NCBI RefSeq assembly: GCF_018977255.1
Contig: NW_024704746.1
Coordinates: forward strand, 1-52,909
DNA: 52,909 nucleotides
Direction of reading: 5' to 3'
DNA from: Callorhinchus milii
Taxonomy: Eukaryota
Positions 1,200-35,488 of this stretch are shown piece by piece; position 1 is the stretch's first letter, and every line of letters starts with the position of its first letter. The position numbers and the translations under genes were made by a program. The notes under the pieces were generated by a model. The model made no database searches. It was not told where the DNA came from and saw nothing but the letters and a program-made list of their open reading frames with translations.

Positions 1200-1265
1200 A
1201 CAGAGCAGATGGTGCAGAAATCTACCGGCGGCAAAGCTCCCGGCAAACAGCTGGCGACTAAAGCT
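1200..1265 (+). pseudogene. H3: Histone H3 N-terminal tail fragment
   Basis: The frame from 1200 reads [22 protein letters not shown] against canonical H3 [22 protein letters not shown]. The native ATG is missing and the 3' side is fused to L2 sequence. Confidence 0.85.
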
Positions 1266-1267
1266 AC

Positions 1268-1600
1268 TTCATTACATTGAGGCTCGATTATGCAAACTCC
1301 CTGCTTGTCGGCCTCCCCAACTTCTCCCTCCATAGGCTGCAGATCATCCAGAACAACACAGCCCGTGTCCTCTGCCGCGCCAAACTCCTTGGCCCTATCA
1401 CCCCCATCCTCGCCCGGCTCCACTGGCTTCCCAGCAACACAGAGGATACAGTTCAAGACCCTGGTCCTCACCTTCAAAACCCTCCATGGTCTTGCTCCCC
1501 CTATCTCTGCCACCTCCTAACCCTCTACCACACTGTTCGCTCCCTCAGCTCAGCGGGCTCCAGCCTGCTTCACATCACCCGCCTCGCTCGCCCCACTACT
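1268..1600 (+). mobile_element. L2 LINE ORF2 C-terminal fragment
   Basis: RLDYANSLLVGLP...LQIIQN..ARVL...ITPILARLHWLP is typical of the L2 ORF2 C-terminus. Confidence 0.85.
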
Positions 1601-4424: not shown

Positions 4425-4510
4425 CACACCTGACCTCACACACCCACATACACACCCGACCTCACACACCCACTTACACACCCGAGCTCAGACACCCACC
4501 TACACACCCA
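4425..4510. repeat. ~26-bp CA-rich minisatellite at the left outer edge of the palindrome (mirror at about 19145-19215)
   Basis: About 3.5 copies of acacccgacctcacacacccac(t/c)tac. Confidence 0.8.
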
Positions 4511-4524
4511 ATCTGAGACACTCT

Positions 4525-4915
4525 CCTACAAGGCTGTCCTCGCTGCTGTGTTGTGCTCAGGCCTGTGGCATCCCGGTTGCACAGGACATAGGGCTGTATG
4601 CACTACTGTGTAGTTAAAAAGGTCTGTGGCATCCCTTTTGCTCAGAACAAAGGGTTGTGCACACTGCTGTGGTATGCGCAGGCCTGTGGCGGCTCTACTG
4701 TACAGGACAAAGTACTGCTCATAGTACTGTGGTATGCACAGGCCTGTGATTGCCCTGCTGCACAGGACACAGGCCTGTCTGCATGGCGTTGGTGTGCGAA
4801 GACCTGTGGCAGTCAGCTTGCAATGGACACAGGGCTGTCTGCAATGCTATGGTATGCACAGGTCTGTGGTGGTCTTGTTTCACAGGACACAGGCTGTCCA
4901 CACCGCTGTGGAGGC
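4525..4915. repeat. 60-bp tandem repeat, about 6.5 diverged copies (mirror at about 18740-19130)
   Basis: Successive 60-nt lines start in register (gcctgtggca/ggtctgtggc/ggcctgtggc/ggcctgtgat/gacctgtggc/ggtctgtggt), with a shared caggacacagggctg..tgctgtggtatgc core. Confidence 0.9.
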
Positions 4916-4919
4916 ACGT

Positions 4920-5036
4920 AGGACTTGGCTGTCCTGATGAAGGGTCGTGGATCCAAAACGTTGACTTACTTTCCTTTCTCCATAGATGCTGCCTGACCTG
5001 CTGACTGTTCCCAGCGACTTCTGTTTTTGTCTTCAA
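4920..5036 (+). mobile_element. Penelope-like element terminal fragment with a degenerate minimal hammerhead ribozyme (mirror at about 18619-18735, - strand)
   Basis: gtc-CTGATGA-a-gggtc-gtg-gatcc-AAAAC-gtt-gac is followed by agatgctgcctgacctgctga...ccagc, the flank I recognise from the abundant chondrichthyan Penelope-derived repeat. Confidence 0.7.
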
Positions 5037-5037
5037 G

Positions 5038-7858
5038 CATTCTATTCCTTTCTCCCTCATGTACCTATTTAGCTTCCCCTTAAATATATCTGTGCTATTT
5101 GCCTCCACAAATGTTCCACTTTCCCACTGCTCTCTGTGTGAAGAAATTTCTTCCAACTTCCCTATTTGATCTATTCTTGACTATTTTATGTTGATGGGCC
5201 CTGGTTTTGGTCTCCCCCACAAGTGGAAATATCTTCCTTATGTCTATTCTATCAAAACCTTTCATCATTTTAAAAACCTCTATCAGGCCACCCCTTACCC
5301 TCCTCTTTTCTGAGAAAAGAGTTCAAGTATGTTCAGCCTTTCCTGATAGGTATAACCTCTCAGTTCTGGGATCGAACGCCTTTTGGAAATCTAAATATAT
5401 TACATATATAGTGTAAACATAAATATATTAAATATATAGTGGAGTCCTGTGGCTCAGTGGTTAGAGCACTCGCTTTGCAAGCGAGAGACCTGAGTTCAAT
5501 TCCAGGCAGAGGGCGAAACCTTGGGCAAGTTTCCTTACTCCACACAGAGCCTAATAATAATCCCTCCAAAACCAAAAACAATAATAAATTGGTCATTTTC
5601 AATCTACGACTGTTTGTGGGACATTGCTGTGCGCAATTGGCTGCCGCGTTTGCCCACAAATATATAGTCAATTCACTTTACAGTGTGTTCTGTGAAGCGC
5701 TTTGGGACGTCCTCCCGACGTGAAAAGCGCTATATCAAATGCAAGGATTATTATTATTATTATTATTATTATCTATCGCATTCCCCTTGTCTACTCTTTC
5801 TGTTACCTTCAAATAATTCAATGAGGTTGGTCAAGCATGACCTTTCTTTTTGGAATCTGTACTGACTATTCTTTATTATGTTTTCCATTTCTAGATGTTT
5901 TTCTATTACCTCTTTCAGTAAGGATTCCATTATCTTTCCTACCCCTGATGTTAAGCTGACAGGTCTATAGTGCCCTGGGGTTGTTCTATCTCCCTTTTTA
6001 AATATAGGTATAACATTAGCTATGCTCCAGTCCTCTGGCACTACTCCCTTTTCTATTGAGTTATTATATATGTGTAATAGTGCCTCTGCAATCTTTTCCT
6101 TTGATTCTTTTAATATATGCGGATGCAAACCATCTGGACCAGGGGTTTTATCCTCTCTGAGTTTTGTTAGTTTTTCGATTATATCTCCCCTTTGTATCTT
6201 AAATGTACTTGTATGTATTATTTTTGATCTAGTCTTCTACTGTCATGTCCACCTGATCTATGTCTGTAGAATATTTTACTATTTCTTTTTATATTTCTTG
6301 ATAATTTTATTTCATAATTCCTCTTTGCCTTCCTAATTATTTTTTGGACTATTTTCCTGACCTCTTCGTATTTTTGTTGCTGTTTATGTACCTTGTGAAC
6401 CCTTCTTTCCTGAGTCTCAACGTTTCTCTTATGACGGTGTCTCATTATTATTTAAGCTTTGTCTTGCTTTTTAGCAGAATATATTTCTCCTGGACTATAT
6501 TGATCACTGTTTTAAATGTTTCCCACTGCTGCTCTATCGCTTTGTTGCCAATATTGTTTTCCAGTTTATTTTCCCAAGTTCCATTCTCATCCCCTCAAAA
6601 TCAGCTTTTTCCCAATCTATTACCCTGGTCTTTGTCATACTAATTTCCTTCTCAATCTTTATCTTAAACCTTATTAAGTTATGATCGCTATTGCCTAGAT
6701 GTTCCCCTACTCGTACTTTTACCTGCTCTGGTTCATTTCCCATTACTAAATCCAGCAGGGATTTCCCCCTTCTTGGGCCGCTTACATACTGGGTAAGAAA
6801 AGAGTCCTGTACACATTGAAGGAACTCCATTCCCTTATCCCCTTAAACCTACCTTTTCTCATCAATAAATTTGGGGGTAGTTGAAATCTCCCATGATTTT
6901 TGCTCTATGTCTTTTACTCATTTCCCTAATTTGCTTGCATATTTCTTCCTCTACCCCCATTCCACCATTAGGTGGTCTGTAGAGTACCCCTATTTGTGTG
7001 ATCGATCCTTTCTTATCTTTCATCTCTATCCACACAGATTCTGTTTCTAGCTCACTGTTGGCTACGTCCCTTCTTTCTACTGCCACAATGTTATCCTTAA
7101 CGAGTACAGCTACTCCACCGCTCTTTTTCCCATCTCTATCCTTTTCCCATGTCTATCCTTTCTAAATACGTTATACCCTGCAATGTTTAATTGCCAGTCC
7201 TATTCTTTCTGTAGCCACGGTTCAGTAATCCCAATTATACCTTGTTCCTCACCACAAATTATTACCTCCAGTTTTCCTGTTTTATTTCAGATGCTGTGTA
7301 CATTGCTGCACAGACAGTTTAATTCATCATTATTATAAATTGTTCCTCATTTTATTTTTGACAGCCTTTTTACACTTCTGTTCTATAATTGTATTAATTC
7401 CTTGACCATTTATAATCTCCTTATTTCTTATTTTTGTCTGGCTTGAGTCACTTCCTTCTAATCCCTCCCTGGCCTTTACTAGTTTAAAGCCTTTGCTCTG
7501 TTTATCCTTTCTGCTCGGACTTGGTCCCCTTTCTTCAGGTGGAGCCCATCCTATTTATACAGCTCCATATTGCTGCCAGCGTCCCCATGAAGTGGAACCC
7601 TTCTTTCCCACACCAATCCTTTAGCCACGTGTTAACTTTCCTAATCTGTTTCTCCCTATTCCAGTTCGCACATGGCTCAGGTAATAATCCAGATTATTAC
7701 CCTCGAGGTCCTGTCTTTTAACTTAACTCCTAACTCCTAAAACTCCCTCTGCAGGACCTCCTCCCTGTTTTTTCCTATGTCGTTTATCCCAATATGGACC
7801 ACAACAAGTGGATCTGGCCCTTCCCTTCCAAATTCCTCTTCAGCTCCTTCAGATCTAT
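5038..7858 (-). mobile_element. CR1 LINE (ORF1 esterase end + ORF2 endonuclease/RT), internally deleted and interrupted by a SINE
   Basis: ORF1 PLVVVHIGINDIG; endonuclease YRPPN, IMGDFNYP and GNSDHNLI; RT PGPDGLHPHILKE, NVIPIFKKGD..YRPVSLTS and IYLDFQKAFD, after which it jumps directly to 3' ORF2 sequence. Confidence 0.92.
5441..5771 (+). mobile_element. tRNA(Ala)-derived SINE with a partial Deu-like core and L2-type 3' tail, full length
   Basis: A box tggctcagtgg, anticodon arm ctcgc-tttgcaa-gcgag (TGC), B box gagttcaattcc and a (tta)n tail; inserted within the CR1 RT. Confidence 0.92.
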
Positions 7859-7859
7859 G

Positions 7860-7998
7860 GAGTGCCCGTGGCGGCCTTGCTGCACATAAAACAAGCTGCA
7901 CACACTGCTGTGGTATGCGCTGGGCCAGTTGCACAGGACACGGGGCTGTGCATACTGCTGTGCCTTGCGCAGGTCTGTGGTGGCCGCTTGTACAGGAT
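7860..7998. repeat. Further ~2 copies of the 60-bp repeat (mirror at about 15656-15794)
   Basis: tgcacaggacacggggctgtgcatactgctgtgccttgcgcaggtctgtgg matches the 4525-4915 unit. Confidence 0.8.
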
Positions 7999-8019
7999 TA
8001 TATTATATTGTATTATATT

Positions 8020-8590
8020 ACGGCCCGCTCTGCCTTCCCCCACCTCCGGAACATCGCCTGACTCCTCCCCTCAGGCCACTGATATCCTCATACACCCATT
8101 TGTCATCTCAACGCTTGACTATGAAAACTCCCTCCACAAGCTACAGATCATCCAGAACTCTGCAACTTGTATCCTCTCCTGCACCAGGCTCCGTGAATCC
8201 ATCATCCCCACCCTCGTCCGGCTCCTCAAAATCCTCACTTTCAAGGCCCTCCATGGCCTTGCCCCCTCCTACCTCTCTTCCTCCACTCAGCAGGCTCTGG
8301 CCTGCTCCATGTCTCCTGCCCGGCCTACCCTACCATCGGCGGCTGGGCTTTCAGCCTCTCTGACCCCACTCTTTCGAACTCCATCCCACAATCCCTTCAC
8401 CCTGCTGCCTCCCTTGCTTGCATCATGACCTCCTTTTCAACCGTGCCTTCAGCTACCCTCCAACCTCTCTGCCATCCCTCGTCCCAACCCTACCCCTGCC
8501 ACGGTCGGTTCCTGATCCCCGACAGTTCAGCACTTTGGGATGTCCTCCCGACGTGAAGGTGCTTTACAAATGTAATTTTATTATCGTTGT
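8020..8590 (+). mobile_element. L2 3' fragment with tail (mirror at about 15065-15634, - strand)
   Basis: LDYENSLHKLQIIQNSA..KILTFKALHGLAPSYL, then the tail tttgggatgtcctcccgacgtgaaggtgctttacaaatgtaat. Confidence 0.85.
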
Positions 8591-8861
8591 TTATATTTAT
8601 ATCCCTGTAGTTAATGAACAGCAACTGTTTAGCACAACAACAGAACCAGCAAAATCCTTTCTCCTTTCTGTGAGAACACTGACACTGTGACGAGCTCCTG
8701 TCTCAGAGCCTCCTGTCACTCACTGAGCTGCCAAACAGTCAGACTCTGGGGAACTGCAGCACATAACATGGACAGAGGAAAATCCGCTCCTGCATGTTAT
8801 ACAACTGGGGTATAGTTTGCCAGTTCAAGGCGCTGATTTAATGATAGCATCAGCGGCTCTG

Positions 8862-9178
8862 TGTTAACAACAAAATTATATTTGTAAAGCCCTTATTGCG
8901 TCGGGATGACATCCCAAGGCGCTGGACAGACAGAGTTAAGGACCTGAGCTGAGGGTTAGGGGAGGATGGACGGCAGGTTGGGAAGCAGGAGATCAAAAGT
9001 ACGGTTGAAGAGGAGGTGGGTCTTGAAGGTGGCAAGACGGAGGGACTGCGGGCTGATGTTCCAGAGGGTGGGTGCAGAGCAATGTCCCACCCGCTGATAG
9101 TGGGGCGAGCGAGGCGGGGGGTGTGAAGCAGCCCACAGCCCACTGAACAAACAGGATGGTACAGGGTTAGGAGGTCAG
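8862..9178 (-). mobile_element. L2 3' fragment with tail, fused directly to the truncated H2A (mirror at about 14476-14792, + strand)
   Basis: In the mirror copy it reads tgacctcctaaccc...ccttcaagacccacctcctcttcaaccg...gcgccttgggatgtcatcccgacg...tacaaatataattttgttgtt. Confidence 0.85.
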
Positions 9179-9411
9179 GGGTCGGGGGTGATGCTGGTCT
9201 TCTTGCTGCCCGCCAGCTCCAGCACCTCAGCGATCAGATACTCGAGCACCGCGGCCACATAGACCGGGGCTCCGGCCCCCACGCCATCAGCGTAGTTGCC
9301 TTTACGGAGATGTCTGTGGACGCGGCCCACGGGGAACTGCAGTCCGGCCCGGGAGGAGCGGGACTTGGCCTGGGCCCGGGCTTCACCTCCAGTCTCCCCA
9401 CGTCCTGACAT
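9175..9411 (-). pseudogene. H2A: Truncated histone H2A (78 codons), left-arm copy
   Basis: [78 protein letters not shown]. Five codons are deleted after LELAG; helix 3, the docking domain and the stem-loop are lost. Confidence 0.88.
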
Positions 9412-9734
9412 CTTGACTAAGATTCCGACACCAACCAGAGCGGATTCTGTGCTTAAATAGGCTCCGAGCGTCAGGCCCTTCATTTCCTGCCCAATCAGAT
9501 CTCCTCGCACTGCAGCCCCAGCCCCGGCCCCCACAGCACATCGGGCTCTCAGCCAATCACAGCACAGAGGCTGGGAGGCTGGGGATTGGTTGCCAACCCC
9601 CGGGGTCCCATTGGGGAACCGGTTATGCTAAAGAGGGATGAACGGACTGCTTTGCTGGGATTGGATGGCGATAATATATAAGAGGAGGTTCAGAACACTG
9701 CCCGACACTGTGTCGGTGGTATCAAGAGAGCAGA
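9412..9734. promoter_or_regulatory. Divergent H2A/H2B promoter, left arm
   Basis: H2A TATA-like TATTTAA (9453-9459, - strand), CCAAT at 9491 and 9553, ATTGG at about 9585, 9610 and 9660, and H2B TATATAA at 9675-9681. Confidence 0.8.
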
Positions 9735-10139
9735 ATGGCTGGTGAGGGCAAATCCGAGGGCAAAGCCGCTAAATCCGAGGGCAAAGGAGCGCCCAAAAAA
9801 GGCAGCAAGAAAGCGATTCGCAAACCGCAGACTGCGGGCAAGAAGCGCAGGAGGTCGAGGAAGGAGAGTTACTCCATCTACGTGTACAAGGTGATGAAGC
9901 AGGTCCACCCGGACACCGGCATCTCCTCCAAGGCCATGAGCATCATGAACTCCTTTGTGAATGACATCTTCGAGCGCATCGCGTCCGAGGCTTNNNNNNN
10001 NNNNNNNNNNNNNNNNNNNNNNNNNNNNNNNNNNNNNNNNNNNNNNNNNNNNNNNNNNNNNNNNNNNNNNNNNNNNNNNNNNNNNNNNNNNNNNNNNNNN
10101 NNNNNNNNNNNNNNNNNNNNNNNNNNNNNNNNNNNNNNN
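9735..10139 (+). CDS. H2B: Histone H2B with an atypical N-terminal tail, left-arm copy (3' part hidden by Ns; end inferred)
   Basis: 86 visible codons [26 protein letters not shown]...[45 protein letters not shown], then 162 Ns (9994-10155). The canonical remaining 48 aa plus stop would end at 10139, 30 nt before the stem-loop. Confidence 0.85.
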
Positions 10140-10165
10140 NNNNNNNNNNNNNNNNCATCTACACA

Positions 10166-10211
10166 CAAAGGCTCTTTTCAGAGCCACACACCACCTCTCC
10201 GACAGAGCTGT
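10166..10211 (+). terminator. Replication-dependent histone mRNA 3' stem-loop plus histone downstream element
   Basis: caaaGGCTCT-TTTC-AGAGCCacaca (stem-loop 10170-10185) and the U7-binding-like acagagctgt at 10202-10211. Confidence 0.95.
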
Positions 10212-10731
10212 AGCAAACGCGCCTTAAGCTGTGTGTGCAGTGCCCGTCCCCGCGGGACCACTGCCCTCTGTGGTTCCACAAGAGGGTCCCATCCGCCCTC
10301 AGCGGCGGATCCTCTCGGCCTTCAGCCCCAATGCCGTCAGCATCGTCAACGGTTTGGGAATCTTAAAGCGATTACAAACGATCCGCGTCCTTAATGTTCC
10401 CTTTTACTCGGATCGTGGAAATACTTTTGGGGCTTCTGATCGGTGGGGAAGGACTTTGTTGGGAGGAGCGTTTTGTTTAATTAAACGAAGTATGAAATCT
10501 TGATCGCGCTCCGCATTCAAACCGATTTTCAAGGATATTCAGGTGAAATAGTTGAAAAACATCAAAATCTCTCCTGGTAATGAGATCCGATTAGAAAAAG
10601 AATTAAAATGGCCATCAATCCGTGTAATGAGACGGAGGTAATATTCGCCTCTAAAGGACATTCACATTCACTCTCCTTTGTCTCCGTGAAATTGGCGCTT
10701 TCATCAATGGTCTGGAAAGGCTTCAGAGCCA

Positions 10732-12921
10732 CCGGGTCAGCACAGGGGGCGCCACTGAGCCCCCTCCCCGGGTCAGCACAGGGGGCGCCACTGAGCCCCC
10801 TCCCCGGGGACACCGGGGCAGCACAGGGGGCGCCACTGAGCCCCCTCCCCGGGGACACCGGGGCAGCACAGGGGGCGCCACTGAGCCCCCTCCCCGGGTC
10901 AGCACAGGGGGCGCCACTGAGCCCCCTCCCCGGGTCAGCACAGGGGGCGCCACTGAGCCCCCTCCCCGGGGACACCGGGGCAGCACAGGGGGCGCCACTG
11001 AGCCCCCTCCCCGGGTCAGCACAGGGGGCGCCACTGAGCCCCCTCCCCGGGTCAGCACAGGGGGCGCCACTGAGCCCCCTCCCCGGGTCAGCACAGGGGG
11101 CGCCACTGAGCCCCCTCCCCGGGTCAGCACAGGGGGCGCCACTGAGCCCCCTCCCCGGGTCAGCACAGGGGCGCCACTGAGCCCCCTCCCCGGGTCAGCA
11201 CAGGGGGCGCCACTGAGCCCCCTCCCCGGGGACACCGGGGCAGCACAGGGGGCGCCACTGAGCCCCCTCCCCGGGGACACCGGGGCAGCACAGGGGGCGC
11301 CCCTGAGCCCCCTCCCCGGGGCAGCACAGGGGGCGCCACTGAGCCCCCCTCCCCGGGGACACTGGGGCAGCACAGGGGGCGCCAGTGAGCCCCCTCCCCG
11401 GGGACACCGGGGCAGCACAGGGGGCGCCACTGAGCCCCCCTCCCCTCCCCCAAACCAACGGGGACACTGGTGCAGCACAGGGGGCGCCACTGAGCCCCCT
11501 CCCCGGGGACACTGGGGCAGCACAGGGGGCGCCACTGAGCCCCCTCCCCGGGGACACTGGGGCAGCAAAGGGGGCGCCAGTGAGCCCCCCTCCTCCCCCC
11601 CAAACCAACGGGGACACTGGTGCAGCACAGGGGGCGCCACTGAGCCCCCTCCCCGGGGACACTGGGGCAGCACAGGGGGCGCCAGTGAGCCCCCCTCCCC
11701 TCCCCCAAACCAACGGGGACACTGGTGCAGCACAGGGGGCGCCACTGAGCCCCTCCCCGGGGACACTGGGGCAGCACAGGGGGCGCCACTGAGCCCCCTC
11801 CCCGGGGACACTGGGGCAGCAAAGGGGGCGCCAGTGAGCCCCCCTCCCCCCCCCAAACCAACGGGGACACTGGTGCAGCACAGGGGGCGCCACTGAGCCC
11901 CCTCCCCGGGGACACCGGGGCAGCACAGGGGGCGCCACTGAGCCCCCTCCCCGGGGACACCGGGGCAGCACAGGGGGCGCCACTGAGCCCCCTCCCCGGG
12001 GACACCGGGGCAGCACAGGGGGCGCCCCTGAGCCCCCTCCCCGGGGACACTGGGGCAGCACAGGGGGCGCCAGTGAGCCCCCCTCCCCGGGGACACTGGG
12101 GCAGCAAAGGGGGCGCCAGTGAGCCCCCCTCCCCCCCCCCAAACCAACGGGGACACTGGTGCAGCACAGGGGGCGCCACTGAGCCCCCTCCCCGGGGACA
12201 CTTGGGCAGCACAGGGGGCGCCACTGAGCCCCCTCCCCGGGGACACCGGGGCAGCACAGGGGGCGCCACTGAGCCCCCTCCCCGGGGACACCGGGGCAGC
12301 ACAGGCGGCGCCACTGAGCCCCCTCCCCGGGGACACAGGGGCAGCACAGGGGGCGCTACTTAGCCCCCCTCCCCGGGGACACAGGGGCAGCACAGGGGGC
12401 GCCACTGAGCCCCCTCCCCGGGGCAGTACAGGGGGCGTCCCCTGTGCTGCCCCGGTGTCCCCGGGGAGGGGGCTCAGTGGCGCCCCCTGTGCTGCCCCGG
12501 TGTCTCCGGGGAGGGGGCTCAGTGGCGCCCCGGTGTCCCCGGGGAGGGGGCTCAGTGGCGCCCCCTGTGCTGACCCGGGGAGGGGGCTCAGTGGCGCCCC
12601 CTGTGCTGACCCGGGGAGGGGGCTCACTGGCGCCCCCTGTGCTGCCCCAGTGTCCCCGGGGAGGGGGGCTCAGTGGCGCCCCCTGTGCTGACCCGGGGAG
12701 GGGGCTCAGTGGCGCCCCCTGTGCTGCCCCGGTGTCCCCGGGGAGGGGGCTCAGTGGCGCCCCCTGTGCTGACCCGGGGAGGTGGCTCAGTGGCGCCCCC
12801 TGTGCTGACCCGGGGAGGGGGCTCAGTGGCGCCCCCTGTGCTGACCCGGGGAGGGGGCTCAGTGGCGCCCCCTGTGCTGACCCGGGGAGGGGGCTCAGTG
12901 GCGCCCCCTGTGCTGACCCGG
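10732..12921. repeat. GC-rich minisatellite (36, 45 and ~60-bp unit variants) whose orientation flips at 12436/12437
   Basis: Core cagcacagggggcgccactgagccccctcccc plus gggt (36 bp), ggggacaccgggg (45 bp) or a ccccaaaccaac insert (~60 bp); units are reverse-complemented after 12437. Confidence 0.97.
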
Positions 12922-13441
12922 TGGCTCTGAAGCCTTTCCAGACCATTGATGAAAGCGCCAATTTCACGGAGACAAAGGAGAGTGAATGTGAATGTCCTTT
13001 AGAGGCGAATATTACCTCCGTCTCATTACACGGATTGATGGCCATTTTAATTCTTTTTCTAATCGGATCTCATTACCAGGAGAGATTTTGATGTTTTTCA
13101 ACTATTTCACCTGAATATCCTTGAAAATCGGTTTGAATGCGGAGCGCGATCAAGATTTCATACTTCGTTTAATTAAACAAAACGCTCCTCCCAACAAAGT
13201 CCTTCCCCACCGATCAGAAGCCCCAAAAGTATTTCCACGATCCGAGTAAAAGGGAACATTAAGGACGCGGATCGTTTGTAATCGCTTTAAGATTCCCAAA
13301 CCGTTGACGATGCTGACGGCATTGGGGCTGAAGGCCGAGAGGATCCGCCGCTGAGGGCGGATGGGACCCTCTTGTGGAACCACAGAGGGCAGTGGTCCCG
13401 CGGGGACGGGCACTGCACACACAGCTTAAGGCGCGTTTGCT

Positions 13442-13487
13442 ACAGCTCTGTCGGAGAGGTGGTGTGTGGCTCTGAAAAGAGCCTTTG
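13442..13487 (-). terminator. Histone stem-loop plus downstream element, right-arm copy
   Basis: ggctctgaaaagagcc at 13468-13483 is the reverse complement of the stem-loop; acagctctgt at 13442-13451 is the reverse complement of the downstream element. Confidence 0.95.
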
Positions 13488-13513
13488 TGTGTAGATGNNN
13501 NNNNNNNNNNNNN

Positions 13514-13918
13514 NNNNNNNNNNNNNNNNNNNNNNNNNNNNNNNNNNNNNNNNNNNNNNNNNNNNNNNNNNNNNNNNNNNNNNNNNNNNNNNNNNNNNNN
13601 NNNNNNNNNNNNNNNNNNNNNNNNNNNNNNNNNNNNNNNNNNNNNNNNNNNNNNNNNNNAAGCCTCGGACGCGATGCGCTCGAAGATGTCATTCACAAAG
13701 GAGTTCATGATGCTCATGGCCTTGGAGGAGATGCCGGTGTCCGGGTGGACCTGCTTCATCACCTTGTACACGTAGATGGAGTAACTCTCCTTCCTCGACC
13801 TCCTGCGCTTCTTGCCCGCAGTCTGCGGTTTGCGAATCGCTTTCTTGCTGCCTTTTTTGGGCGCTCCTTTGCCCTCGGATTTAGCGGCTTTGCCCTCGGA
13901 TTTGCCCTCACCAGCCAT
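13514..13918 (-). CDS. H2B: Histone H2B with an atypical N-terminal tail, right-arm copy (3' part hidden by Ns; end inferred)
   Basis: The visible translation is identical to the left copy; Ns at 13498-13659. Confidence 0.85.
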
Positions 13919-14242
13919 TCTGCTCTCTTGATACCACCGACACAGTGTCGGGCAGTGTTCTGAACCTCCTCTTATATATTATCGCCATCCAATCCCAGCA
14001 AAGCAGTCCGTTCATCCCTCTTTAGCATAACCGGTTCCCCAATGGGACCCCGGGGGTTGGCAACCAATCCCCAGCCTCCCAGCCTCTGTGCTGTGATTGG
14101 CTGAGAGCCCGATGTGACGTAGAGACAGGGGGCTGGGGCTGCAGTGCGAGGAGATCTGATTGGGCAGGAAATGAAGGGCCTGACGCTCGGAGCCTATTTA
14201 AGCACAGAATCCGCTCTGGTTGGTGTCGGAATCTTAGTCAAG
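13919..14242. promoter_or_regulatory. Divergent H2B/H2A promoter, right arm, with a CRE/ATF-like TGACGT
   Basis: Mirror of the left promoter, but it has TGACGT at 14115-14120, which the left arm lacks. Confidence 0.8.
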
Positions 14243-14479
14243 ATGTCAGGACGTGGGGAGACTGGAGGTGAAGCCCGAGCCAAGGCCAAGTCCCGCTCCT
14301 CCCGGGCCGGACTGCAGTTCCCCGTGGGCCGCGTCCACAGACATCTCCGTAAAGGCAACTACGCTGATGGCGTGGGGGCCGGAGCCCCGGTCTATGTGGC
14401 CGCGGTGCTCGAGTATCTGATCGCTGAGGTGCTGGAGCTGGCGGGCAGCAAGAAGACCAGCATCACCCCCGACCCCTGA
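14243..14479 (+). pseudogene. H2A: Truncated histone H2A (78 codons), right-arm copy
   Basis: [33 protein letters not shown]...[15 protein letters not shown], with the same deletion and L2 fusion as the left copy. Confidence 0.88.
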
Positions 14480-15796
14480 CCTCCTAACCCTGTACCATCC
14501 TGTTTGTTCAGTGGGCTGTGGGCTGCTTCACACCCCCCGCCTCGCTCGCCCCACTATCAGCGGGTGGGACATTGCTCTGCACCCACCCTCTGGAACATCA
14601 GCCCGCAGTCCCTCCGTCTTGCCACCTTCAAGACCCACCTCCTCTTCAACCGTACTTTTGATCTCCTGCTTCCCAACCTGCCGTCCATCCTCCCCTAACC
14701 CTCAGCTCAGGTCCTTAACTCTGTCTGTCCAGCGCCTTGGGATGTCATCCCGACGCAATAAGGGCTTTACAAATATAATTTTGTTGTTAACACAGAGCCG
14801 CTGATGCTATCATTAAATCAGCGCCTTGAACTGGCAAACTATACCCCAGTTGTATAACATGCAGGAGCGGATTTTCCTCTGTCCATGTTATGTGCTGCAG
14901 TTCCCCAGAGTCTGACTGTTTGGCAGCTCAGTGAGTGACAGGAGGCTCTGAGACAGGAGCTCGTCACAGTGTCAGTGTTCTCACAGAAAGGAGAAAGGAT
15001 TTTGCTGGTTCTGTTGTTGTGCTAAACAGTTGCTGTTCATTAACTACAGGGATATAAATATAAACAACGATAATAAAATTACATTTGTAAAGCACCTTCA
15101 CGTCGGGAGGACATCCCAAAGTGCTGAACTGTCGGGGATCAGGAACCGACCGTGGCAGGGGTAGGGTTGGGACGAGGGATGGCAGAGAGGTTGGAGGGTA
15201 GCTGAAGGCACGGTTGAAAAGGAGGTCATGATGCAAGCAAGGGAGGCAGCAGGGTGAAGGGATTGTGGGATGGAGTTCGAAAGAGTGGGGTCAGAGAGGC
15301 TGAAAGCCCAGCCGCCGATGGTAGGGTAGGCCGGGCAGGAGACATGGAGCAGGCCAGAGCCTGCTGAGTGGAGGAAGAGAGGTAGGAGGGGGCAAGGCCA
15401 TGGAGGGCCTTGAAAGTGAGGATTTTGAGGAGCCGGACGAGGGTGGGGATGATGGATTCACGGAGCCTGGTGCAGGAGAGGATACAAGTTGCAGAGTTCT
15501 GGATGATCTGTAGCTTGTGGAGGGAGTTTTCATAGTCAAGCGTTGAGATGACAAATGGGTGTATGAGGATATCAGTGGCCTGAGGGGAGGAGTCAGGCGA
15601 TGTTCCGGAGGTGGGGGAAGGCAGAGCGGGCCGTAATATAATACAATATAATATAATCCTGTACAAGCGGCCACCACAGACCTGCGCAAGGCACAGCAGT
15701 ATGCACAGCCCCGTGTCCTGTGCAACTGGCCCAGCGCATACCACAGCAGTGTGTGCAGCTTGTTTTATGTGCAGCAAGGCCGCCACGGGCACTCCA

Positions 15797-18617
15797 TAGA
15801 TCTGAAGGAGCTGAAGAGGAATTTGGAAGGGAAGGGCCAGATCCACTTGTTGTGGTCCATATTGGGATAAACGACATAGGAAAAAACAGGGAGGAGGTCC
15901 TGCAGAGGGAGTTTTAGGAGTTAGGAGTTAAGTTAAAAGACAGGACCTCGAGGGTAATAATCTGGATTATTACCTGAGCCATGTGCGAACTGGAATAGGG
16001 AGAAACAGATTAGGAAAGTTAACACGTGGCTAAAGGATTGGTGTGGGAAAGAAGGGTTCCACTTCATGGGGACGCTGGCAGCAATATGGAGCTGTATAAA
16101 TAGGATGGGCTCCACCTGAAGAAAGGGGACCAAGTCCGAGCAGAAAGGATAAACAGAGCAAAGGCTTTAAACTAGTAAAGGCCAGGGAGGGATTAGAAGG
16201 AAGTGACTCAAGCCAGACAAAAATAAGAAATAAGGAGATTATAAATGGTCAAGGAATTAATACAATTATAGAACAGAAGTGTAAAAAGGCTGTCAAAAAT
16301 AAAATGAGGAACAATTTATAATAATGATGAATTAAACTGTCTGTGCAGCAATGTACACAGCATCTGAAATAAAACAGGAAAACTGGAGGTAATAATTTGT
16401 GGTGAGGAACAAGGTATAATTGGGATTACTGAACCGTGGCTACAGAAAGAATAGGACTGGCAATTAAACATTGCAGGGTATAACGTATTTAGAAAGGATA
16501 GACATGGGAAAAGGATAGAGATGGGAAAAAGAGCGGTGGAGTAGCTGTACTCGTTAAGGATAACATTGTGGCAGTAGAAAGAAGGGACGTAGCCAACAGT
16601 GAGCTAGAAACAGAATCTGTGTGGATAGAGATGAAAGATAAGAAAGGATCGATCACACAAATAGGGGTACTCTACAGACCACCTAATGGTGGAATGGGGG
16701 TAGAGGAAGAAATATGCAAGCAAATTAGGGAAATGAGTAAAAGACATAGAGCAAAAATCATGGGAGATTTCAACTACCCCCAAATTTATTGATGAGAAAA
16801 GGTAGGTTTAAGGGGATAAGGGAATGGAGTTCCTTCAATGTGTACAGGACTCTTTTCTTACCCAGTATGTAAGCGGCCCAAGAAGGGGGAAATCCCTGCT
16901 GGATTTAGTAATGGGAAATGAACCAGAGCAGGTAAAAGTACGAGTAGGGGAACATCTAGGCAATAGCGATCATAACTTAATAAGGTTTAAGATAAAGATT
17001 GAGAAGGAAATTAGTATGACAAAGACCAGGGTAATAGATTGGGAAAAAGCTGATTTTGAGGGGATGAGAATGGAACTTGGGAAAATAAACTGGAAAACAA
17101 TATTGGCAACAAAGCGATAGAGCAGCAGTGGGAAACATTTAAAACAGTGATCAATATAGTCCAGGAGAAATATATTCTGCTAAAAAGCAAGACAAAGCTT
17201 AAATAATAATGAGACACCGTCATAAGAGAAACGTTGAGACTCAGGAAAGAAGGGTTCACAAGGTACATAAACAGCAACAAAAATACGAAGAGGTCAGGAA
17301 AATAGTCCAAAAAATAATTAGGAAGGCAAAGAGGAATTATGAAATAAAATTATCAAGAAATATAAAAAGAAATAGTAAAATATTCTACAGACATAGATCA
17401 GGTGGACATGACAGTAGAAGACTAGATCAAAAATAATACATACAAGTACATTTAAGATACAAAGGGGAGATATAATCGAAAAACTAACAAAACTCAGAGA
17501 GGATAAAACCCCTGGTCCAGATGGTTTGCATCCGCATATATTAAAAGAATCAAAGGAAAAGATTGCAGAGGCACTATTACACATATATAATAACTCAATA
17601 GAAAAGGGAGTAGTGCCAGAGGACTGGAGCATAGCTAATGTTATACCTATATTTAAAAAGGGAGATAGAACAACCCCAGGGCACTATAGACCTGTCAGCT
17701 TAACATCAGGGGTAGGAAAGATAATGGAATCCTTACTGAAAGAGGTAATAGAAAAACATCTAGAAATGGAAAACATAATAAAGAATAGTCAGTACAGATT
17801 CCAAAAAGAAAGGTCATGCTTGACCAACCTCATTGAATTATTTGAAGGTAACAGAAAGAGTAGACAAGGGGAATGCGATAGATAATAATAATAATAATAA
17901 TAATAATCCTTGCATTTGATATAGCGCTTTTCACGTCGGGAGGACGTCCCAAAGCGCTTCACAGAACACACTGTAAAGTGAATTGACTATATATTTGTGG
18001 GCAAACGCGGCAGCCAATTGCGCACAGCAATGTCCCACAAACAGTCGTAGATTGAAAATGACCAATTTATTATTGTTTTTGGTTTTTGGAGGGATTATTA
18101 TTAGGCTCTGTGTGGAGTAAGGAAACTTGCCCGAGGTTTCGCCCTCTGCCTGGAATTGAACTCAGGTCTCTCGCTTGCAAAGCGAGTGCTCTAACCACTG
18201 AGCCACAGGACTCCACTATATATTTAATATATTTATGTTTACACTATATATGTAATATATTTAGATTTCCAAAAGGCGTTCGATCCCAGAACTGAGAGGT
18301 TATACCTATCAGGAAAGGCTGAACATACTTGAACTCTTTTCTCAGAAAAGAGGAGGGTAAGGGGTGGCCTGATAGAGGTTTTTAAAATGATGAAAGGTTT
18401 TGATAGAATAGACATAAGGAAGATATTTCCACTTGTGGGGGAGACCAAAACCAGGGCCCATCAACATAAAATAGTCAAGAATAGATCAAATAGGGAAGTT
18501 GGAAGAAATTTCTTCACACAGAGAGCAGTGGGAAAGTGGAACATTTGTGGAGGCAAATAGCACAGATATATTTAAGGGGAAGCTAAATAGGTACATGAGG
18601 GAGAAAGGAATAGAATG
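15797..18617 (+). mobile_element. CR1 LINE, mirror copy
   Basis: ORFs 15720-15917, 16568-16792, 16824-17120 and 17526-17885 have the same translations as the left-arm CR1. Confidence 0.92.
17883..18214 (-). mobile_element. tRNA-derived SINE, mirror copy
   Basis: Reverse complement of 5441-5771, with one substitution and a 1-bp indel seen. Confidence 0.92.
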
Positions 18618-19450
18618 CTTGAAGACAAAAACAGAAGTCGCTGGGAACAGTCAGCAGGTCAGGCAGCATCTATGGAGAAAGGAAAGTAAGTCAACGTTTT
18701 GGATCCACGACCCTTCATCAGGACAGCCAAGTCCTACGTGCCTCCACAGCGGTGTGGACAGCCTGTGTCCTGTGAAACAAGACCACCACAGACCTGTGCA
18801 TACCATAGCATTGCAGACAGCCCTGTGTCCATTGCAAGCTGACTGCCACAGGTCTTCGCACACCAACGCCATGCAGACAGGCCTGTGTCCTGTGCAGCAG
18901 GGCAATCACAGGCCTGTGCATACCACAGTACTATGAGCAGTACTTTGTCCTGTACAGTAGAGCCGCCACAGGCCTGCGCATACCACAGCAGTGTGCACAA
19001 CCCTTTGTTCTGAGCAAAAGGGATGCCACAGACCTTTTTAACTACACAGTAGTGCATACAGCCCTATGTCCTGTGCAACCGGGATGCCACAGGCCTGAGC
19101 ACAACACAGCAGCGAGGACAGCCTTGTAGGAGAGTGTCTCAGATTGGGTGTGTAGGTGGGTGTGTGAGCTCGGGTGCGTAGGTGGGTGTGTGAGGTCGGG
19201 TGTGTAAGGTGAGTGTCTGACAGAGAGAGAAACAAGTACTTGCATTTTTGTAGCATTTCAAACTGACAACAACAGCCACAATAACAACAAATTACATTTG
19301 TATGGCACCTTATCACATCAGGAGGATGTCCCAAGTCATAATGAGCTGCCCAACTCAAAGCTGCCCCACACAAGCGAGTCCCCCACACCCGCTCCCAGCA
19401 AATCTCTTCTTAAACACCTCTGGCTTTTGAATAAAAATCAAAACACACAG

Positions 19451-22792: not shown

Positions 22793-23114
22793 AATAATAA
22801 TAATAATAATCCTTGAATTTGATATAGCGTTTTTCACGTCTTCTTGATGTCTCAAAGCGCTTCACAGAATATACTATAAAGTGAATTGACTGTATATTTG
22901 TGGGCGAACGCGGCAGCCAATTGCGCACAGCAATGTCCCACAAACAGTCATGGATTGAAAATGACCAATTTATTATTGTTTTGTTTTGGAGGGATTATTA
23001 TTATGCTCTGTGTGGAGTAAGGAAACTTGCCCAAGGTTTCGCCCTCTGCCTGGAATTGAACCCAGGTGTTTCGCTTGCAAAGCGAGGGCTCTGACCACTG
23101 AGCTACAGGACTCC
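22793..23114 (-). mobile_element. tRNA-derived SINE, same family
   Basis: Full-length reverse copy ending in gagctacaggactcc. Confidence 0.92.
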
Positions 23115-24153: not shown

Positions 24154-24710
24154 GGGGGGGTGGGGGGGGGGGTGTGAGGGGGGTTGAGGGGGGGGGGGGT
24201 GAGGGGTGGAGGGGGGTGTGGAGGGGGGTAGGGGGTGTGGGGGTGTGAGGGGGTGTGAGGGGGTGTTAGTGGGTGTGAGGGGGTGTGAGGGGGGGGGGGG
24301 GGGTGGGGGTGTGAGGGGGTGTTGGGGGGGCTGAGGGGGGGGGGTGGGGGGGGTGAGGGGGGGGGGGGGGGGGGCTGAGGGGGGGGGCTGAGGGGGGTGG
24401 GGGGGGTGAGGGGGTGGGGGGTGTGAGGGGGGGTTGAGGGGGTGTGAGGGGGGTGAGGGGGGGTGAGGGGGGTGTGAGGGGTGTGGGGGGGGGGTGTGGG
24501 GGGTGTGAGGGGTGGGGGGTGTGAGGGGTGGGGGGGTGAGGGTGTGAGGGGGTGTGAGGGGTGGGGGGTTGGGGGTGTGGGGGGTGTGAGGGGGGGTGTG
24601 GGGGGGCTGAGGGGGGGCTGAGGGGGGGGGGGGGGGTGAGGGGGGTGGGGGGGTGAGGGGGGGGCTGAGGGGGGTGGGGGGGTGAGGGGGGGTGGGGGCT
24701 GAGGGGGGTA
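24154..24710. repeat. G-rich low-complexity array ((G)n-TGTGA/TGA/CTGA), next to a 25-N gap (24129-24153)
   Basis: Continuous G runs separated by tgtga/tga/ctga; homopolymer lengths are probably unreliable. Confidence 0.9.
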
Positions 24711-25400
24711 CAGGCCGCTGTGTACACTATGTACTGAGCGCTATGTCGGGGCTGTGCACTCACCGCGGCTCAGACTGACTGACAGACAGACTGACTGCCG
24801 GGAGGGGGTCACGTGTTAAACCTGCCGTAAAGGCGGCTTCTGTTTCCCTTTGCGACACCGTGACCAGCAAAAACAGCCCGACCCGACCCCCGGCCCCCGG
24901 ACCCCCGGCCCGGCCCGGCCTGACCCCCCGCCCCGCCCCGCCCCGCCCCGGCCTCACACACACCCGGGCGGGCCTGGCGGGCGGGGCCGGGGCTGCCGTC
25001 ACCCCCTCCCCCCGGGTCTCAGGTTGTTTTTATTTCCAGGGAGAGCTCCACGAGGCCTTAGCGGCCTCTCCCCCCCCCCGGCCCCGCCCCCGCCCCTCCC
25101 CCCGCCGCCGGGGCCACTGCACAGACAGCACAATGGCGGCCATGGACCGGGAGATGATTCTCGCTGATTTTCAGGTGCGATCTTTACCATTTAAAAGCCT
25201 TTCTGTGTGTCCTCCCCTCCGCCCCCTGTCCCTGCCCTCCTCGGGCCTCTTTTGCCCCGTGTCTCTCCCCCGCCATTGCCTCCTGTGTCGGGCGGCGGCG
25301 GCTCGGTGCGGTGCGGTGCGGCGCGGCGCGGCCCCGGGCCGCTCCTGTCATGTCCCCGGGTTTGTGTGACCGCAGTGATTCCCGGGGGTGTCGGGCTGTT
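24710..25400. promoter_or_regulatory. CpG-island promoter of FAF1
   Basis: Very high GC and CpG content, tandem GC boxes (ccccgccccg, about 24925-24950 and 25080-25100), E-box GTCACGTG at 24808-24815, and a YY1-like aatggcggc over the ATG. Confidence 0.85.
25133..25174 (+). CDS. FAF1: FAS-associated factor 1, coding exon 1
   Basis: MAAMDREMILADFQ followed by a GT donor (cag|gtgcga); matches the vertebrate FAF1 N-terminus MDREMILADFQ. Confidence 0.95.
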
Positions 25401-34273: not shown

Positions 34274-34600
34274 GGAGTCCTGTAGCTCAGTGGTTAGAGC
34301 ACTCGCTTTGCAGGTGAGAGACCTGAGTTCAATTCCAGGCAGAGGGCGAAACCTTGGGCAAGTTTCCTTACTCCACACAGAGCCTAATAATAATCCCTCC
34401 AAAAACCCAAAACAATAATTAAATTGGTCATTTTCAATGTACGACTGTTTGTGGGACATTGTTGTGCGCAATTGGCTGCCGCGTTCGCCCACAAATATAC
34501 AGTCAATTCACTTTACAGTGTGTTCTGTGAAGCGCTTTGGGACGTCCTCCTGACGTGAAAAGCGCTATATCAAATGCAAGGATTATTATTATTATTATTA
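34274..34600 (+). mobile_element. tRNA-derived SINE, full length
   Basis: ggagtcctgtagctcagtggttagagc...(tta)n. Confidence 0.92.
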
Positions 34601-35166: not shown

Positions 35167-35488
35167 ATAATAATAATAATCCTTGCATTTGATATAGCAC
35201 TTTTCACGTCGGGAGGGGATGTCCCAAAGCGCTTCACAGAACACATTGTAAAGTGAATTGACTGTATATTTGTGGGCGAACGCGGCAGCCAATTGCGCAC
35301 AGCAATGTCCCACAAACAGTCGTAGATTGAAAATGACCAATTTATTATTGTTTTTGGTTTTGGAGGGACTATTATTAGGCTCTGTGTGGAGTAAGGAAAC
35401 TTGCCCAAGGTTTCGCCCTCTGCCTGGAATTGAACTCAGGTCTCTCACTTGCAAAGCGAGTGCTCTAACCACTGAGCTACAGGACTCC
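35167..35488 (-). mobile_element. tRNA-derived SINE, full length
   Basis: Reverse copy nearly identical to 34274-34600. Confidence 0.92.

Follow-up and report, generated by a model that had tools for sequence, protein, structure and literature searches.

A palindromic pair of elephant-shark H2B genes with a repeat-extended tail, probably dispersed copies of a species-typical replication-coupled subtype

The H2B gene and its flanking signals

The window analysed here is a stretch of 52,909 nucleotides from the elephant shark Callorhinchus milii (contig NW_024704746.1, positions 1 to 52,909). It carries on its forward strand a histone H2B coding sequence of 134 amino acids (9735..10139), the 3' part of which is masked, so that its end is taken from the RefSeq protein record P0002. 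The open frame runs through all 258 visible bases, and the 86 residues they encode are the exact start of this 134-residue C. milii protein (XP_007883036.2, XP_042190856.1 and XP_042191777.1; three accessions on two contigs), which RefSeq names 'late histone H2B.L4-like'. The gene is a real, already annotated elephant-shark H2B, and the length of about 134 residues proposed in an earlier note on this DNA agrees with the record. A length of 134 codons places the stop at 10137-10139, 30 bases 5' of the histone stem-loop, and since both the match to P0002 and this stop position fit, the masked part most likely carries neither a stop nor a frameshift. The masked run has no space beyond 134 codons and a short 3' UTR, which makes the gene intronless. 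The protein matches the Pfam family PF00125 with 89.1 bits, the last 48 residues having been supplied by P0002 and not by the window; the fold is canonical, and the tail is expected to be disordered.

Translation from 9735 yields the N-terminal tail of 41 residues (9735..9857) that the earlier note had described, and the repeats within it lie where that note had placed them. A 16-mer is repeated directly and in frame at 9750-9765 and 9771-9786, and the 9-mer that encodes one EGK unit occurs at 9744, 9756 and 9777, in frame each time. When the 41 codons of the tail were shuffled 3000 times, a direct repeat of 16 bases arose in only 2 shuffles (mean 7.9), and the repeat is therefore not attributable to chance. 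The tail keeps PKKGSKK; neither polyglutamine nor an SP[KR][KR] motif is found in it.

The signals on either side of the gene, namely a TATA box, a stem-loop and a downstream element, are likewise as the earlier note had reported them. A bidirectional H2A-H2B promoter (9412..9734) contains CCAAT/ATTGG elements at 9491, 9553, 9585, 9610 and 9660 and TATA-like boxes at 9453 and 9675, the one at 9675 (TATATA) lying upstream of H2B. No exact octamer is present in this promoter, the best match having two mismatches (at 9625). The octamer drives S-phase transcription of H2B in mammals and is typical of mammalian promoters; we know of no requirement for it in cartilaginous fish. At the 3' end, the stem-loop (10170-10185) and downstream element are matched together by the Rfam model Histone3 at 10165..10211 on the forward strand (E 1.1e-7, six of six stem pairs standard). 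The match is missing from a gathering-score scan of the whole window because its 31.3 bits fall below the gathering score of 34. No AATAAA occurs between this stem-loop and 10730. Stem-loop, downstream element and absence of introns are given as hallmarks of replication-dependent histones in the available text of PMC5011920, according to which such genes produce non-polyadenylated S-phase mRNAs that are cut with U7 snRNA.

The palindrome and the second copy

The H2B gene occurs twice in the window. A second copy, which the earlier note had overlooked, lies on the minus strand at 13514..13918 (read from 13918 to 13514) within a 14.8-kb palindrome (4436..19220). It is identical to the left copy in its visible part, has an inferred end, and is followed by its own stem-loop (13468..13483, minus strand); two histone stem-loops were found in the window, and both belong to H2B copies. 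The arms differ at 14 of 6282 columns, seven of the differences falling in one promoter cluster (9521-9536) and two in H2A; the H2B coding sequence has none where it is visible. The centre of the palindrome is a G+C-rich minisatellite with units of 36/45 bases (10730..12923), whose direction flips near 12430, with 1.7 kb on one side of the turn and 0.5 kb on the other.

It is pertinent to ask whether the second copy could be an assembly fold-back, leaving one locus only, an explanation that would be compatible with the other alternatives discussed below. Arms that are 99.7% identical and a turn that falls, nearly without spacer, within the G+C-rich minisatellite are in favour of such an artefact. 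However, the sequences beyond the two arms differ, and the arm differences are mostly substitutions. Moreover, sequencing run X5 contains the left-arm promoter version, at all seven differences, and run X1 contains that of the right arm. Although these two versions could still be alleles or paralogues, their presence in the runs and the different sequence beyond the arms make a pure fold-back unlikely, and we consider this explanation very improbable.

Through the seven clustered differences (9521-9536 versus 14117-14132), the left-arm promoter has lost a CRE-like TGACGT site, and the left-arm version resembles neighbouring sequence, as in a template switch. The outermost parts of the palindrome arms carry degenerate 60-base tandem repeats (4639-4898 and 18882-19123). 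A sex-chromosome palindrome was also considered and rejected, nothing linking the H2B locus to the holocephalan X candidate; the sole such candidate in the available part of PMC12952989 is a 500-kb scaffold whose orthologues lie for the most part on human 1 and chicken 25.

The broken H2A genes

Both H2B copies adjoin a broken H2A in head-to-head orientation, all within the palindrome (left copy 9175..9411, minus strand; right copy 14243..14479, plus strand). In each arm the H2A reads for 78 codons, carries glutamate in place of lysine at positions 6 and 10, has a five-residue deletion and ends at an early stop, and its C-terminal half and stem-loop are missing. The decay of the H2A partner, recognised in the earlier note, is thereby spelled out. 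The break is real, since a contig of run X1 crosses it without differences (14339-14568). No intact C. milii H2A was seen among the best 120 of 3778 matches, which consisted of doubled gene models from other species.

Outside the palindrome, 18 codons (1215..1268, plus strand; E 2.9e-5 to histone H3 chains) remain as a relic of the N-terminal tail of histone H3. The relic stands isolated amid repeat fragments, 8 kb from H2B.

The tail and fold among other H2B proteins

A search with tail residues 1-46 passed two of 13 candidates, both of them C. milii proteins of 134 residues named 'late histone H2B.L4-like'. The window protein has same-length paralogues at other loci: P0003, which differs from P0002 at three tail residues (7-9) and has four listed accessions on a separate 367-kb contig, and P0004, which differs at residues 7 and 9. 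The seven accessions of P0002 and P0003 do not equal seven genes, because consecutive RefSeq accessions may be transcript variants; two of those of P0002 would correspond to the two copies in the window. A shorter C. milii H2B of 128 residues, P0041, aligns to the 134-residue type with a seven-residue gap in the tail. The EGK unit is present three times in P0002, twice in P0003 and P0004 and once in P0041, so that the threefold repeat described in the earlier note holds for P0002 and not for its paralogues.

As P0041 combines one EGK with the seven-residue gap, EGK is a trait of elephant-shark H2Bs, and the extension amounts to about one duplication of seven residues. Two changed residues give P0002 its third EGK, for which the unit 21 bases further 3' probably served as the template. 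Further, since the same-length paralogues differ at only two or three tail residues, the tail of the window gene does not look special within its species.

Among the alignment rows of PMC8857922 (Supplementary Data S3, the part of that work available to us), one named 'Elephant Shark_H2B' has the P0004 form, two of 134 residues away from the window protein, and sits among plain H2Bs, apart from the H2B.K rows; the label is a row name and involves no expression assay. The lamprey H2B next to it has 133 residues, counted by eye. A second row of the same name, with no further designation there, is far more divergent and has many fold changes, and it would make a stronger case for a true variant than the window gene does. 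Apart from this alignment, our literature searches, limited for subscription papers, returned no discussion of the tail, and none of the papers found takes up the palindrome, the decayed H2A partner or the third EGK.

The wider comparison comprised 67 stored proteins (5 from C. milii, 55 from sharks and rays, 7 from teleosts), to the exclusion of other taxa and of gene models with a long N-terminal extension. As they were drawn from the best 120 of 7390 matches together with cluster members, the set may lack further C. milii H2Bs. All five C. milii H2Bs retrieved have one and the same 93-residue fold, which is shared by none of the 62 shark, ray and teleost rows, the nearest of which differs at three sites. 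In a 26-row tree without mammalian rows, the four full C. milii H2Bs fall on one side of a branch with support of 100/98. The net charge of the tail is +12 in the 134-residue type, +11 to +13 in 53 of the 55 elasmobranchs (the two outliers have +9 and, in a row out of register, +7); in all seven teleosts it is +11. The canonical vertebrate start with which the earlier note had compared the tail proved a wrong comparator, as only 4 of the 55 shark and ray H2Bs begin with MPEPAKSAP; two acidic tail residues are found in 28 of the 55. An SPKK-type motif is in none of the 67 rows.

The replication-coupled H2Bs of sharks and rays resemble the window gene in being intronless, with a stem-loop, a head-to-head H2A and an equal net tail charge, and also in a variable tail start with acidic residues. 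Compared with these forms (123-128 residues), the window protein is 6-11 residues longer and has three or four fold residues typical of C. milii. A tail-only search of 1.84 billion representatives, weak owing to the 50% clustering, gave one match, to a carp H2B over residues 15-46. Neither tail search, both limited in reach, returned relatives of the tail outside C. milii, in keeping with the lineage-specific tail that had been suggested.

Related copies in sequencing runs

Four of the 24 listed sequencing runs were compared with window positions 13760-15100. None of the four, the DNA-like run X1 included, gave a contig matching the coding part of the window H2B, a gap that is probably due to filtering and carries no information on expression. 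In X1, an independent, DNA-like run, a 370-base contig matches the right-arm promoter from 13999 without a difference over 243 bases and runs on into H2A up to 14368, where four differences occur; through two of these, codons 6 and 10 encode lysine. The contig is joined by two forms of the H2B 5' leader, one being identical to the window. From this contig and its joined leaders, it would follow that the promoter, in its other copies, stands between an H2B leader of this kind and an H2A with a normal start. The contrast between the promoter (0 of 243 bases) and the adjacent H2A start (4 of 127) gives a Fisher p of 0.013 with a boundary chosen afterwards, and it offers a hint that the promoter has been kept by selection or conversion.

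The same run holds a decayed H2B paralogue (on 13760-13912) with 13 differences in 153 bases, four of the six listed being amino-acid changes. Depths in X1 are 68.7 for the promoter, 18-22 for window-specific pieces, 41.1 for a paralogous flank and 8.1 for the decayed copy, which would agree with a total of about seven, including the two in the window, although this is not a copy number. Run X5 covers the promoter and intergenic DNA at a depth of 2.8, more like a DNA background. In X12, taken by guess to be RNA, a 61-base contig agrees with the window H2A at 60 of 61 bases at a depth of 22500, and X10-X13 contain 0.22-0.31 of the sampled words; contigs cannot give an RNA level, and these figures do not count as evidence of expression.

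These copies bear on whether the two genes in the window are still at work. The subtype could be live elsewhere while the window copies are silent or dying, intact only since they are young or have been refreshed by gene conversion. The broken H2A beside each, the H3 relic nearby and the decayed paralogue in X1 all speak of ongoing birth and death and would suit this explanation. On the other hand, H2A has been truncated and has taken up several substitutions and a deletion, whereas no fold change is seen in the record of H2B, the promoter is unchanged and the H2B stem-loop is intact. Overall, we regard silent or dying copies as unlikely.

Known H2B variants and the nature of the gene

The sperm H2Bs of sea urchins and hydrozoans carry SPKK/SPKR repeats and resemble the window protein in that a short repeat makes their tail longer. 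The available text of PMC5011920 describes the SPKK forms as binding linker DNA and compacting sperm chromatin. An H2B of this kind was rejected for want of the motif in the window tail, where the added residues are moreover neutral in charge.

H2B.K, an oocyte variant of bony vertebrates whose gene has an intron and in most cases a poly(A) signal and whose tail is polyglutamine according to the accessible portion of PMC8857922, shares with the window protein a near-canonical fold and a divergent tail. By eye, one fold glutamine is common to the window H2B and several H2B.K rows (Supplementary Data S3 of that paper). It was rejected as well, the window gene being without intron and polyglutamine, keeping PKKGSKK and having a stem-loop.

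The third variant considered, H2B.1 (TH2B), arose in mammals and is a germline protein set apart from core H2B chiefly by its tail, with a stem-loop in its gene, so far as the available text of PMC8857922 goes. As an identity it was rejected, given its mammalian origin and the grouping of the window protein with other C. milii H2Bs in the tree without mammalian rows. The window gene could nevertheless be similar to it as a stem-loop gene with a tail divergent from core H2B, and by analogy it could still work like H2B.1.

Orphon histone genes are dispersed copies of cluster genes, and the locus is like them in presenting an H2A-H2B unit and an H3 relic away from a full cluster, in partly decayed form. 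It differs from them in that the unit sits in a 14.8-kb palindrome.

Taken together, the window H2B has four sequence features of replication-coupled genes: the fold, the lack of introns, the stem-loop with downstream element, and multiple copies with H2A head to head. Our preferred reading, to which we would give a probability of about 0.65, is that it is a dispersed, duplicated copy of a multi-copy, species-typical, replication-coupled H2B subtype. This reading stems from the 134-residue tail type at other loci, the fold identical to that of the 128-residue type, the head-to-head H2A, and the stem-loop with its downstream element. Counting against it, P0041 could be the bulk somatic H2B, the promoter is without an exact octamer, the Histone3 score stays under the cut-off, and further C. 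milii H2Bs may be hidden where another species leads the cluster, or may rank below the best 120 of 7390 matches. What the earlier note had proposed, a functional and specialised variant akin to sperm H2B, would thus stand in its first part, as the gene is probably functional, and not in its second: paralogues at other loci, one fold across the C. milii H2B types and the lack of SPKK all speak against it. The opposing view, that the tail belongs to the ordinary H2B of the species, is largely borne out by the paralogues, the fold, the promoter joined to a normal H2A start and, as far as an alignment row can tell, PMC8857922.

Under the dispersed-copy reading, a short duplication near the 5' end would have added about seven residues in the ancestor of the subtype with the net charge unchanged. 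An H2A-H2B unit would then have left the cluster, after which its H2A decayed, the second EGK unit being probably copied from a neighbour 21 bases away, and the unit would subsequently have been duplicated as an inverted repeat. The gene may give a non-polyadenylated S-phase mRNA processed by U7 snRNP and by SLBP. The protein would pair with H2A made at other loci and enter bulk nucleosomes, its extra residues sitting in the flexible part of the tail.

The form of the gene is compatible with a germline bias, since germline H2B.1 also has a stem-loop (PMC8857922, available part). The 134-residue subtype might be biased towards the germline or a developmental stage and work like mammalian H2B.1, leaving the 128-residue type as the bulk somatic H2B. 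Two tail types in one species (P0002, P0003 and P0004 versus P0041), the missing octamer, the CRE-like site in the right-arm promoter and the tail-centred divergence of H2B.1 would be in line with this. Nonetheless, we find it rather doubtful, as the fold is that of the 128-residue type, the net charge of the tail is unchanged, SPKK is lacking and other copies appear to pair with an H2A having normal tail lysines. It is conceivable, if improbable, that chimaeras have evolved a germline- or embryo-biased H2B of their own, independently of H2B.K and H2B.1, through a charge-neutral, lysine-adding tail duplication, with conversion between the arms of an autosomal palindrome keeping two copies intact after the death of H2A. 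A germline bias, if true, would matter more than the dispersed-copy reading, since our literature searches found no H2B variant in cartilaginous fishes.

On the dispersed-copy reading itself the gene matters little: it shows that H2B tail starts can vary freely in cartilaginous fishes and that variants are not well judged against the mammalian tail. The locus is also a neat case of histone-gene birth and death, with an intact H2B pair, dead H2A genes, an H3 relic and a palindrome brought together.

Other features of the window

A spliced gene on the plus strand, with a G+C-rich promoter and first three coding exons at 25133-25174, about 43366 and about 44866, begins about 6 kb beyond the end of the palindrome. 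We take it to be FAF1, the usual head-to-head neighbour of which is CDKN2C. Upstream of its promoter, a near-pure G/T-rich low-complexity tract (24154-24709) follows a run of 25 N and is possibly poorly resolved sequence. Finally, five partial tRNA-like Rfam matches (5447-5509, 18146-18208, 23046-23108, 34280-34342 and 35420-35482) are probably the heads of a tRNA-derived SINE.
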